A stretch of DNA of 64,000 bases, from assembly GCA_021802125.1 (NCBI GenBank), contig JAKAAX010000007.1, positions 8,983 through 72,982 on the forward strand, given 5' to 3'. This DNA is from Thermoplasmata archaeon. GTDB lineage: Archaea; Thermoplasmatota; Thermoplasmata; Lutacidiplasmatales; UBA184. Each line of letters opens with the position of its first letter. The first letter of the stretch is position 1. Both the position numbers and the translations under genes were made by a program. Shown here one piece after another: positions 38,762-48,656 of this stretch. Below the pieces are notes generated by a model. It did no database searches, had not been told where the DNA came from, and saw nothing but the letters and a program-made list of their open reading frames with translations.

Positions 38762-38834
38762 TGGGCCCGGTCGGACTCGAACCGACGACCAACCGGTTAT
38801 GAGCCGGACGCTCTAGCCACTAAGCTACGGGCCC
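38762..38834 (-). tRNA. tRNA with CAT anticodon (elongator Met, or Ile2 if C34 is modified).
   Basis: The reverse complement is GGGCCCGTAGCTTAGTGGCTAGAGCGTCCGGCTCATAACCGGTTGGTCGTCGGTTCGAGTCCGACCGGGCCCA. It has a 7-bp acceptor stem, the T-arm GTCGG-TTCGAGT-CCGAC and the anticodon loop CTCATAA. No CCA is encoded. Confidence 0.9.
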
Positions 38835-45891: not shown

Positions 45892-48021
45892 ATGACCGAC
45901 CGCCCAGGGGTGGAGGTCGCGCCCGTCCCCACGATGCGGACGGCCGCCAAGGAGCGGCAGAAGATCCTCGCCTCGCTCGACTCCACGCAGACCCAGGCCT
46001 TCCATCTCCGGACCATCGTGGTCGCCGGGATGGGTTTCTTCTCGGACGCCTACGACCTCTTCGTCATCTCGATGGCGTTGCCCATCTTGGGCTTCCTCTA
46101 CGGTACCAGTGGGTCCCTCCCGAAGCTCGAGCTCTCCGCCATCGCGGCGTCCGCCCTGTTCGGTGCGGTGGTCGGACAGGTCTTCTTCGGGATGCTGGCC
46201 GACAAGTTCGGGCGGAAGAAGATCTACTCGCTCACGCTCTCGGTCATGGTCATCGGAGCGGTGGGGAGCGCGTTCGCCTCCCCGTTCATGGGGCTGGACC
46301 TGGTGATGGTCCTCGTCCTCTGGAGGTTCCTGCTCGGGTTCGGGGTGGGGGGAGACTATCCGCTCTCGGCCACCATCATGAGCGAGTACAGCAACATCCG
46401 CAGCCGGGGAAGGCTCATCGCGAGCGTGTTCGCGATGCAGGGCTTCGGGCTGCTCACGGGAGCGGTCGTTTCGCTGGCCGCCATCCTGGTGCTCCCGGTC
46501 CACGACCTCGACCTGGTCTGGAGGATCATCCTCGGGTTCGGGGCGGTCCCGGCCCTGGCGACGATCTACTTCCGGACCAAGATGCCGGAGACCCCGCGGT
46601 TCCAGCTCGCGGTCCAGGGCGACGTGGAGGCCGCCTCAAAGACCATCACCACGCTCACGGGGAAGGCCTCGACGAGCCGGGCCATCGGGACCCCCTCGTC
46701 CCGCCACATCAAGGTCCCGCTCGGGACCTTCCTCCGAAACTACGCCCCGGTCCTCTTCGGGACCGCCGCGTCGTGGTTCCTGCTGGACATCGCGTTCTAC
46801 TTCTCGAACATCTTCAATCCGACCGTCCTCACCCACATCGGGTTCGCCTCCTCCAAGCCCACGACGTTCCTCCTTGCGCACCAGGCGGTGCTCACGCTGG
46901 CCGAGGGGAACATCCTGATCGCGCTCTTCGCGACCGTGCCGGGATACTGGGCCGCGGTGGCCCTCATCGACCGCTGGGGCCGCCGAAGCCTCCAGATCAT
47001 CGGGTTCGGCATCATGGCCTTCTCCTTTGCGATCCTCTCGTTCTTCTACAGCTCCCTGCTCGGGACCTCCCTCCTCCTGTTCCTCGCCGTCTACGCGACG
47101 ACCTTCTTCTTCGCGAACTTCGGGCCCAACACCACGACCTTCGTGATCCCGAGCGAGGTCTATCCCACGCAGTTCCGGGGGACCGGGCACGGCATCTCGG
47201 CCGCCTCAGGGAAGCTGGGCGCGGCGATCGCGACCTTCTTCCTGCCGCTCTTCCTGGTCGCGAACGGTCTGCCCCCCACCCTGCTCGTGCTCGCGGGGGT
47301 CTGCTTCCTGGGGTTCTTCATCTCCCTCGTCACCACCCCGGAGACCACCGGTCGTGCCCTCGAGGACGTCTCCCGCGAGGACGAGCTTCACCTCATGGTG
47401 GAGCGGTTCTCCGGGCATCTGGAGGGACTGGTCGACGCGGTGAAGCTCGGGGCGGGGGAGCTCAACGTGCTCCTCGCGAACCCTCCGACCGAGCTTTCCG
47501 AACGGGTCCCCCGCATCTCGGCCATCGAACAGCAGGCGGACGAGGCGGTCCATCAGATCTACATCGACCTCAACAACAAGGTCATGCGGACCCAGGTGCG
47601 CTCGGACGTGGGTGCGCTCGCGAGCCACCTGGACGACATCATGGACGGCATCGAGGCCGTGGCGGCGCGGATGAAGACCTACCACTTCGTCGACAGCGAC
47701 CCGGACCTCAAACGGTTCGGCGAGATCGTGGTGCAGTGCGTCGATGAGGTGGGGGTGGGCATCCACGCGCTCGACGGGCTACTGGACGGGAAGACCACCG
47801 AGCTCCAGCATTCCATCGAGGAAGTGAACCGTCTGGAGAACGAGGCGGACGACCTCCTCCGGGGTCTTCTCGAGCGGCTGTTCAACGACTCGAAGTCGGC
47901 CCTGGAGGTCCTGAAGTTGAAGGACCTCTACGAGCGGCTCGAGGTCATCACCGACCGGTGCGAGGACGTGACGGACGTCTTCCAGGACCTGATGGTCCGG
48001 TACGCGGTGCTGGCGCCGTAG
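45892..48021 (+). CDS. Fusion protein: PHS-family (Pho84-like) MFS inorganic phosphate transporter plus a C-terminal DUF47/PhoU_div (Pit-accessory-like) domain.
   Basis: Track ORF, 709 aa. MFS part: GMGFFSDAYDLFVISMALP, ADKFGRKKIY, RFLLGFGVGGDYPLSATIMSEYS. From about 47398 onward: ISAIEQQADEAVHQIY...HLDDIMDGIEAVA...EEVNRLENEADDLLRGLLERLF...LKDLYERLEVITDRCEDVTDVFQDLMVRY, which is the DUF47 two-repeat pattern. Confidence 0.85.
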   Translation: MTDRPGVEVAPVPTMRTAAKERQKILASLDSTQTQAFHLRTIVVAGMGFFSDAYDLFVISMALPILGFLYGTSGSLPKLELSAIAASALFGAVVGQVFFGMLADKFGRKKIYSLTLSVMVIGAVGSAFASPFMGLDLVMVLVLWRFLLGFGVGGDYPLSATIMSEYSNIRSRGRLIASVFAMQGFGLLTGAVVSLAAILVLPVHDLDLVWRIILGFGAVPALATIYFRTKMPETPRFQLAVQGDVEAASKTITTLTGKASTSRAIGTPSSRHIKVPLGTFLRNYAPVLFGTAASWFLLDIAFYFSNIFNPTVLTHIGFASSKPTTFLLAHQAVLTLAEGNILIALFATVPGYWAAVALIDRWGRRSLQIIGFGIMAFSFAILSFFYSSLLGTSLLLFLAVYATTFFFANFGPNTTTFVIPSEVYPTQFRGTGHGISAASGKLGAAIATFFLPLFLVANGLPPTLLVLAGVCFLGFFISLVTTPETTGRALEDVSREDELHLMVERFSGHLEGLVDAVKLGAGELNVLLANPPTELSERVPRISAIEQQADEAVHQIYIDLNNKVMRTQVRSDVGALASHLDDIMDGIEAVAARMKTYHFVDSDPDLKRFGEIVVQCVDEVGVGIHALDGLLDGKTTELQHSIEEVNRLENEADDLLRGLLERLFNDSKSALEVLKLKDLYERLEVITDRCEDVTDVFQDLMVRYAVLAP

Positions 48022-48107: not shown

Positions 48108-48210
48108 CGCCGCCGCGCGGAGTTTCGGGTGAGCGCGTGGAGGCGCACACCGTTCGAACCGCGGACCTTTCGGTTAACAGCCGATCGCTCTGCCACTGAG
48201 CTACGGCGGC
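48108..48210 (-). tRNA. tRNA-Asn (GTT) with a 31-nt intron in the T-loop (non-canonical position, about 59/60).
   Basis: The reverse complement is GCCGCCGTAGCTCAGTGGCAGAGCGATCGGCTGTTAACCGAAAGGTCCGCGGTTCGAA[CGGTGTGCGCCTCCACGCGCTCACCCGAAAC]TCCGCGCGGCGGCG. T-stem CGCGG/CCGCG and acceptor stem GCCGCCG/CGGCGGC only pair if the bracketed 31 nt (about 48122-48152) are removed. The insert itself folds as GGTGTGCGC-CTCCAC-GCGCTCACC. Confidence 0.8.
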
Positions 48211-48239
48211 ACCGGTCGAGCCGACCCGAAGGAGGGTAT

Positions 48240-48656
48240 TTACCTTTCCCGCCGGGAAACCCCCGCGGCTACGACCCTCGGGGACGCCACTGGGGGGGGC
48301 GCGTTCTTCGCCCGGAACCCCGCGGCGCGTTCCTTCAGGTGCTGGATGATGCTGTTCATCTGGTCCAGCGATCGGTCCAGGTCCCTCCAGAACTCCTTCG
48401 ACTTCTCCGTGACGACCGCGCCTTCCGCCGAGGGTTCGATGACCCCCTGGCGTTCGAGGAGGTGGAGCGAGTAGCGGACCTTGTGGATGGGCAGCTTCAG
48501 CGCCTCGGAGAGACGGATGATGCCCATGGGGTGGTTGTCCGAGAGCCTCTCGAGGATGTCGACGTTCCGTGCCAGCAGCTCGAGCTCCGCCAGTATCCTG
48601 TCGACAAGAATCGTACCTTCCACTTCGTCTGGGAGCGGCTCTTCAGAGCTTGGCAT
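48240..48656 (-). CDS. Winged-helix DNA-binding protein (archaeal transcription regulator-like).
   Basis: Track ORF, 138 aa. LERLSDNHPMGIIRLSEALKLPIHKVRYSLHLLERQGVIEPS fits the wHTH pattern. A TATA-like ttaaatag (minus) lies about 40 nt upstream. Confidence 0.65.
   Translation of the reverse strand: MPSSEEPLPDEVEGTILVDRILAELELLARNVDILERLSDNHPMGIIRLSEALKLPIHKVRYSLHLLERQGVIEPSAEGAVVTEKSKEFWRDLDRSLDQMNSIIQHLKERAAGFRAKNAPPPVASPRVVAAGVSRRER

Follow-up and report, generated by a model that had tools for sequence, protein, structure and literature searches.

The window analysed here, a stretch of 64,000 nucleotides from a Thermoplasmata archaeon contig, contains a tRNA-Asn(GUU) gene with 31 extra nucleotides inside its T-loop, and the locus raises the question of whether this is a working gene with an intron or a broken one. 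An earlier note on this DNA, made from the letters alone, had proposed a T-loop intron. Three lines of evidence now bear that proposal out and place the 31-nt intron at position 59/60: a strict bulge-helix-bulge (BHB) motif, a canonical spliced tRNA, and conservation with covariation in the family. We consider it very likely that the locus is a working tRNA-Asn(GUU) gene, no other copy of which was detected, with a 103-nt precursor whose strict BHB intron would be cut by an alpha'2 EndA and whose exons would be joined by RtcB; cleavage and ligation in the cell are what we infer from the features described below.

Read directly from the sequence, the gene runs from 48210 to 48108 of the window on the minus strand (103 nt), and CCA is not encoded. 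Its parts are as follows.

48108..48210, minus strand: complete pre-tRNA-Asn(GUU), read directly, with the discriminator G at 48108
48153..48210, minus strand: exon 1, 58 nt (acceptor 5' strand, D-arm, anticodon arm, variable loop, T-stem 5' strand, and T-loop nucleotides 54-59)
48178-48176, minus strand: anticodon GUU, in exon 1
48163-48159, minus strand: T-stem 5' strand CGCGG, in exon 1, followed by T-loop nucleotides 54-59 (UUCGAA)
48122..48152, minus strand: predicted intron, 31 nt, at position 59/60 (minimum free energy folds, family-wide conserved position, and compensatory changes)
48108..48121, minus strand: exon 2, 14 nt (U60, T-stem 3' strand CCGCG, acceptor 3' strand CGGCGGC, and discriminator G)

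Exon 1 reads GCCGCCG-UA-GCUC-AGUGGCA-GAGC-G-AUCGG-CUGUUAA-CCGAA-AGGUC-CGCGG-UUCGAA, and the intron (48152-48122) reads CGGUGUGCGCCUCCACGCGCUCACCCGAAAC. All seven pairs of the acceptor stem are perfect. The elements named in the earlier note (i.e., the GUU anticodon, the CCGCG T-stem strand, and the CGGCGGC acceptor strand) are all in place, as is its 9-bp hairpin GGUGUGCGC/GCGCUCACC, in which the single mismatch is U-U. The top pair of the anticodon stem, nucleotides 27/43 (window 48184/48168), is an A.A mismatch; it is kept in most family members, replaced by C.A in some, and by A-U in G012.

The earlier note had also called for a BHB model of both junctions. For the 103-nt precursor and the 50-nt T-arm alike, the RNAfold minimum free energy (MFE) prediction was one dominant structure, a strict 3-4-3 hBHBh', consisting in order of the 5-bp T-stem CGCGG/CCGCG, a bulge AAC, a 4-bp helix UUCG:CGAA, a bulge ACU, and the inner hairpin. 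The T-arm fold (-23.2 kcal/mol) accounted for 66% of the ensemble and had a z score of -4.1, which none of 200 shuffles equalled. The elements of the predicted motif map to the window as follows.

48155..48158, minus strand: exon strand of the central BHB helix, U54 U55 C56 G57, paired with CGAA in the MFE structure
48124..48127, minus strand: intron strand of the central BHB helix, CGAA (intron positions 26-29), in the MFE structure
48152..48154, minus strand: 5' bulge A58 A59 / C, with the predicted 5' splice site between 48153 and 48152
48121..48123, minus strand: 3' bulge A C / U60, with the predicted 3' splice site between 48122 and 48121
48151-48143 paired with 48136-48128, minus strand: inner intron helix with a 6-nt loop (48142-48137), in the MFE structure

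Both 3-nt bulges sit 3' of their respective central-helix strands in the MFE structure, and the nine positions of the inner helix comprise 4 bp, the U-U mismatch, and 4 bp. If each bulge is cut behind its second nucleotide, the intron falls between 59 and 60 and the remaining T-loop is UUCGAAU, which is also the T-loop of intronless tRNA-Asn in other Thermoplasmata families. We assigned the insertion to 59/60 because this is the sole register that gives a 7-nt T-loop together with both junctions after the second bulge nucleotide; registers 58/59 and 57/58 gave neither a BHB nor a canonical 7-nt T-loop and were rejected. When 48122-48152 was removed in silico, the result was a canonical 72-nt tRNA that ARAGORN calls tRNA-Asn(gtt).

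In its interrupted form, the gene escapes standard scans, as the earlier note had predicted. Default ARAGORN reported only two uninterrupted tRNAs in the window and missed tRNA-Asn, and the Rfam tRNA model matched the locus with only 33.3 bits, a deleted T-arm, and a wrong 3' end. Allowing ARAGORN unlimited intron length produced dozens of false tRNAs with "introns" of 100 to 2600 nt in this 69% GC genome, which we discarded; a "tRNA-Asn" on contig C37 from these calls is an artefact.

Among the 40 nearest genomes, tRNA-Asn was interrupted in every family member with a usable match. We parsed the gene in 25 family members (drawn from these 40 genomes, plus G152), and in all 25 the intron was 28 to 35 nt long, was located at 59/60, and contained a GC-rich hairpin over which the T-stem closes. 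When the spliced tRNA was compared by BLAST with 251 genomes of the class, matches in the family ended at about position 58, some of them running a few bases into the intron. Seventeen further family genomes break near position 58, bringing the total to 42 of 43; in the remaining genome (G004), tRNA-Asn was not found. Judged from these comparisons, the predicted T-loop intron is a trait of the whole family, and, as the census below shows, T-loop introns are not confined to tRNA-Asn.

Across the 25 family members, mean identity was 93% for the exons and 59% for the introns, of which 24 were distinct, and the spliced T-loop was UUCAAAU or UUCGAAU in 23. The central helix had all four pairs in 14 members, three in 10, and two in 1; in the 11 imperfect cases, the fourth pair was mismatched, mostly as A57.G. 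Pairs were counted in an anchored alignment of 24 sequences (G024 was left out, its intron being identical to that of G020), and pairing in the central and inner helices had not been imposed during parsing. Paired cells amounted to 91.3%, compared with 78.8 ± 1.4% in shuffles, a value attained by none of 500 shuffles. The covariation score was 0.35 versus 0.146, and slid registers reached at most 56%. Across the intron, covariation is seen at the T-stem pair 49:65 (A-U, 13; C-G, 9; G-C, 1), and the 57:intron pair switches between G-C and A-U among relatives. The 100% pairing of the T-stem is partly by construction because T-stem complementarity was a parsing criterion.

Elsewhere in Thermoplasmata, tRNA-Asn occurs in other intron states. 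Many other families gave uninterrupted BLAST matches over positions 1-72 (i.e., their tRNA-Asn is intronless), family f2 has a canonical 37/38 intron only and an intact T-loop, and family f3 combines a 37/38 intron with a mini-intron of 11 to 14 nt at 59/60. The family of the window has the 59/60 hairpin intron only (28 to 35 nt). This series within the order suggests that introns were gained step by step at 59/60 and lost at 37/38, in an active turnover. The relatives compared for the three tRNA-Asn intron states were G025/G029 (L121, L120) and G026/G028 (L112, L111).

A census of the genome, made by a targeted scan and manual parsing, revealed at least 15 introns in 14 of ~41 detected tRNA genes, 12 of them noncanonical. 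Introns of 29 to 41 nt at 59/60 were present in at least nine tRNA genes, including that for Asn; the central helix had four of four pairs in His(GUG), Gly(UCC), Ala(GGC), Lys(UUU), and Asn(GUU) and three of four in Asp(GUC), Ser(GCU), Ser(GGA), and Arg(UCG). D-loop introns were found in Lys(UUU), Arg(GCG), and Pro(UGG), and canonical introns in Met, Leu(UAA), and Trp. Four of these genes are located as follows.

G000 C7:~118457-118560 and C54:~85940-86053, minus strand: tRNA-Arg(GCG) and tRNA-Pro(UGG), with a D-loop hairpin insert of ~25-35 nt
C16:111695-111840, plus strand: tRNA-Lys(UUU), with a D-loop insert and a 41-nt 59/60 intron
G000 C14:72466-72575, minus strand: tRNA-Arg(UCG), for which the better model has seven perfect acceptor-stem pairs and a 59/60 intron of 35 nt

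The Arg(GCG), Pro(UGG), and Lys(UUU) genes were wrong or absent in both the ARAGORN and the Rfam tRNA model calls. For tRNA-Arg(UCG), ARAGORN reported an intronless 77-nt gene at 72500-72576, in which part of the intron serves as the 3' end; the Rfam score is only 20 bits. This ARAGORN call is a silent misannotation. Applied to the whole genome, default ARAGORN did not report tRNAs for Asn, His, Trp, and Tyr. The tRNAs for Tyr, Glu(UUC), Leu(CAG/UAG), and Thr(GGU) were not found by the methods used in this 89.9% complete genome; they may lie in the missing 10% or contain more complex interruptions. A strict-BHB splice-and-rescan procedure returned many low-quality calls, and a call was kept only if its acceptor stem was complete and it showed tRNA hallmarks; "Arg-acg" (C13) and "Pro-cgg" (C47), 2 of the 11 rescan survivors, were rejected by eye. 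Because default finders miss tRNA-Asn and several other tRNAs, genomes of the clade seem to lack essential tRNAs, and the omissions distort quality scores of metagenome-assembled genomes (MAGs) that are based on tRNA counts. When the nine T-loop introns were compared with one another for common ancestry, His/Ser-GGA stood out among the 36 pairs (z = 4.2), and the others scored at most 3.3. This similarity is suggestive only, as a GC hairpin and a GRAA tail are shared by design.

The enzyme that would process these precursors is encoded in the same genome.

G000 C54:~68400-69540 (L001:1459-2595), minus strand: EndA, 378 aa, with two PF01974 and two PF02778 domains in one ORF

Its two N-terminal and two catalytic domains form the two-unit architecture of the alpha'2 type, and a second EndA gene was not found in the genome. 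The Tyr, His, and Lys residues align with the catalytic residues of the EndA of M. jannaschii (1A79), and the C-terminal unit matches the alpha subunit of M. jannaschii residue for residue and at equal length (162 versus 162). Opposite the Crenarchaea-specific loop of A. pernix alpha (VEKPRGADFEG), the sequence has a 10-residue gap. The marks of broad-specificity EndA are a separate beta subunit or a three-unit architecture, together with a specificity-loop insertion that has a conserved Lys, and the protein has none of them. Its nearest relatives all come from "Thermoplasmata archaeon" MAGs, including one with 97% identity (isolate clean3262). It aligns with the A. fulgidus and M. kandleri enzymes over the full two-unit length, and its alignment with the Thermoplasma acidophilum EndA (2OHC) spans only ~70 residues. 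An N-terminal extension of ~85 residues has a weak Sen54-N-like match. An RtcB ligase is also encoded (568.7 bits).

Enzymes of the alpha4 and alpha'2 types require a strict 3-4-3 hBHBh' (PMC3239211), a requirement that the strict tRNA-Asn motif fits. The insert could nevertheless be a real BHB intron that is cut by something other than alpha'2 EndA, either through an undetected second subunit or by an enzyme of broadened specificity. Narrow-type alpha'2 enzymes cope poorly with relaxed motifs (PMC6379350, PMC5829648), which the literature assigns to (alpha-beta)2 and epsilon2 enzymes (PMC5829648), and the central helix is imperfect in 4 of the 9 T-loop introns in this genome and in 11 of the 25 tRNA-Asn introns of relatives. 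Against this stand the single EndA locus, with both PF01974 domains in one ORF, and a protein that has neither the Crenarchaea-specific loop nor any change in length relative to M. jannaschii alpha. Moreover, the intron in the window is strict, which makes a special enzyme unnecessary here. The relaxed motifs in relatives have no bearing on the strict motif of tRNA-Asn in the window, and a different cutter appears very unlikely.

A second possibility is that the 31-nt insertion has inactivated the gene, leaving a disrupted pseudogene, and that a working tRNA-Asn lies elsewhere or on an unassembled contig. Default finders make no call at the locus, and the assembly (2.63 Mb; 69% GC; 54 contigs; 89.9% complete) has room for a second tRNA-Asn on a missing contig. 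The earlier note had advised looking for another tRNA-Asn gene. Searches with Infernal, with BLAST (using the precursor and the spliced sequence), and with an nhmmer profile detected a single locus and no second one in the ~90% complete assembly. Neither was an intact second tRNA-Asn found in more than 40 relatives, some of which are 98 to 100% complete, and relatives of up to 100% completeness carry only the interrupted gene. A tRNA pseudogene is expected to have an intact paralogue and to decay freely, but no paralogue was found in the 89.9% complete assembly and the exons are strongly constrained. The interrupted form has been kept in seven genera, in which the exons are near-invariant and the insert varies freely yet always pairs. 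The insert also sits in perfect BHB register, and a TATA-like box is conserved upstream. The earlier note had named the combination that would have pointed to a pseudogene, namely, junctions unable to form a BHB together with an intact second copy; here, the BHB is present and a second copy was not found. We consider the pseudogene reading extremely improbable and effectively refuted because the interrupted form is conserved.

The region upstream of the tRNA contains two features.

48237..48242, minus strand: candidate TATA-like box with the sequence TAAATA, read directly, which precedes the tRNA 5' end by 27-32 nt
48240..48656, minus strand: upstream ORF of 138 aa, a possible winged-helix DNA-binding protein, neighbouring the tRNA and outside it

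The tRNA-Asn precursor probably has its own promoter, with TAAATA at -32 to -27. Flanks were read for five other tRNAs with a T-loop intron: four of these (His, Asp, Ser-GCU, and Ala-GGC) are preceded by an AT-rich box at a similar distance, and the box of the fifth, Gly-UCC, is ~10 nt farther upstream. The tRNA-Asn genes of relatives likewise have an AT-rich box at a similar upstream distance. Since the TAA stop of the upstream ORF sits within TAAATA, the end of that gene and the predicted tRNA promoter overlap. The earlier note had described the tRNA as lying 29 nt downstream of a winged-helix regulator gene. The 29-nt gap and the shared strand hold, but the label is doubtful: searches of Pfam and NCBIfam with the 138-aa ORF gave sub-threshold matches only (HVO_A0114, 22.7 bits; CggR_N, 22.2 bits; ArsR/DeoR-type HTH, E = 0.02-0.1).

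On the other side, convergent with the tRNA, the window encodes a 709-aa fusion protein (45892-48021, plus strand) in which an MFS Sugar_tr-type transporter is joined to PhoU_div (DUF47) at the C terminus; it may transport phosphate or organophosphate under regulation. A second tRNA gene (GGGCCCGTAGCTTAG...) is located 15 to 35 nt downstream of tRNA-Asn in most of the family's other genera (L090-L106). This GGGCCCGTAGCTTAG tRNA resembles the tRNA-Met of the window (38762-38834). In the genus of the window's genome, the two genes do not adjoin, and here 9.3 kb separate tRNA-Asn from the similar tRNA-Met.

Returning to the reading of tRNA-Asn as a spliced, functional gene, we propose the following course of maturation. 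In the precursor, U54-G57 would pair with CGAA near the 3' end of the intron to form the strict hBHBh' (3-4-3), which would stack between the T-stem and the 9-bp GC-rich hairpin of the intron. The homodimeric alpha'2 EndA alone would recognize this BHB, whatever its position in the tRNA, and would cut once per bulge, at A59/C and C/U60. RtcB would then join the exons, and CCA would be added posttranscriptionally. The product would be a normal 72-nt tRNA body with the T-loop UUCGAAU. Because U54-G57 would be sequestered until splicing, the elbow between the T-loop and the D-loop should be unable to form before then. A T-loop intron would thereby impose an order on maturation: splicing first, followed by elbow formation and modifications of the T54/Psi55/m1A58 type.

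It is also conceivable that the insert is retained and that the RNA works, whether as a tRNA or in another role, with a T-arm enlarged by an extra hairpin. Such an RNA would have no T-loop, as U54-G57 are sequestered, and a retained insert sits poorly with flanks that fit the endonuclease motif precisely and with a 57:intron pair that covaries. Sister families have a mini-intron of 11 to 14 nt or none at this site, yet their mature T-loops are identical. We regard retention as highly implausible. Group I and group II introns have a ribozyme core, measure a few hundred nucleotides upward, and carry an Rfam signature; with an insert of 31 nt and tRNA as the sole Rfam family in the window, a self-splicing intron was rejected.

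The kind of intron described here is already known, since T-loops are recognized BHB sites (PMC6379350) and a 59/60 BHB intron is documented in ARMAN-2 ("Ca. Micrarchaeum acidiphilum"), in pre-tRNA-Pro(GGG) and pre-tRNA-Cys(GCA) (Fujishima et al. 2011, PMC3239211); a 59/60 pre-tRNA of ARMAN-2 served as a substrate for Kaneta et al. 2018 (PMC5829648). Our full-text literature search returned no description of T-loop introns in Thermoplasmata, an absence that is no proof of unpublished status. The tRNA-Asn intron is ordinary in mechanism and unusual in position and lineage. It shares with ARMAN-2 a protein-spliced type of BHB intron between T-loop nucleotides 59 and 60, and the Pro(GGG) intron of ARMAN-2 is also a strict hBHBh'. 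However, the ARMAN-2 EndA is a three-unit epsilon2 enzyme with a specificity loop, whereas the enzyme here is a two-unit alpha'2 without the loop. Likewise, the Cys intron of ARMAN-2 is a 13-nt relaxed hBH, in contrast to the 31-nt GC-rich hairpin in a Thermoplasmata host. The ARMAN-2 positions 59/60 and 53/54 coincide with major insertion sites of the (alpha-beta)2 lineages (PMC3239211).

Noncanonical and multiple tRNA introns are known from Thermoproteales, other Crenarchaeota, and Thaumarchaeota (PMC4090602, PMC8450103; Marck & Grosjean 2003; Sugahara et al. 2008). The present genome resembles these groups in having BHB introns outside 37/38, many of them per genome, that are missed by finders that are not intron aware. 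With the canonical 37/38 introns of euryarchaea (Haloferax volcanii and Archaeoglobus fulgidus), the tRNA-Asn intron shares the 3-4-3 hBHBh', the enzyme class, and RtcB ligation. The outer helix, however, is the T-stem here and the anticodon stem there, and what the exon contributes to the central helix here is the universally conserved T-loop UUCR.

Euryarchaeota with alpha4 or alpha'2 enzymes have introns in <10% of their tRNA genes, singly and at 37/38 (PMC4090602), and noncanonical introns have been linked with enzymes of the (alpha-beta)2 or epsilon2 type that carry specificity loops (PMC5829648, PMC6379350). A lineage-wide load of 59/60 introns alongside a narrow-type enzyme departs from this textbook picture of Euryarchaeota. 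In this order-level clade, about one-third of the tRNA genes may carry noncanonical introns (mainly at T-loop 59/60, also in the D-loop) in the company of an ordinary alpha'2 that lacks every known specificity loop. Nearly half of these introns would have an imperfect central helix (A57.G), which would point either to an alpha'2 of broader specificity, relative to the characterized A. fulgidus and T. acidophilum enzymes, or to a link between enzyme architecture and intron diversity that is not causal; we hold the chances of this interpretation to be evenly balanced. The genome offers a natural test of the "coevolution" rule, in which the specificity of the enzyme is set against the supply of introns.
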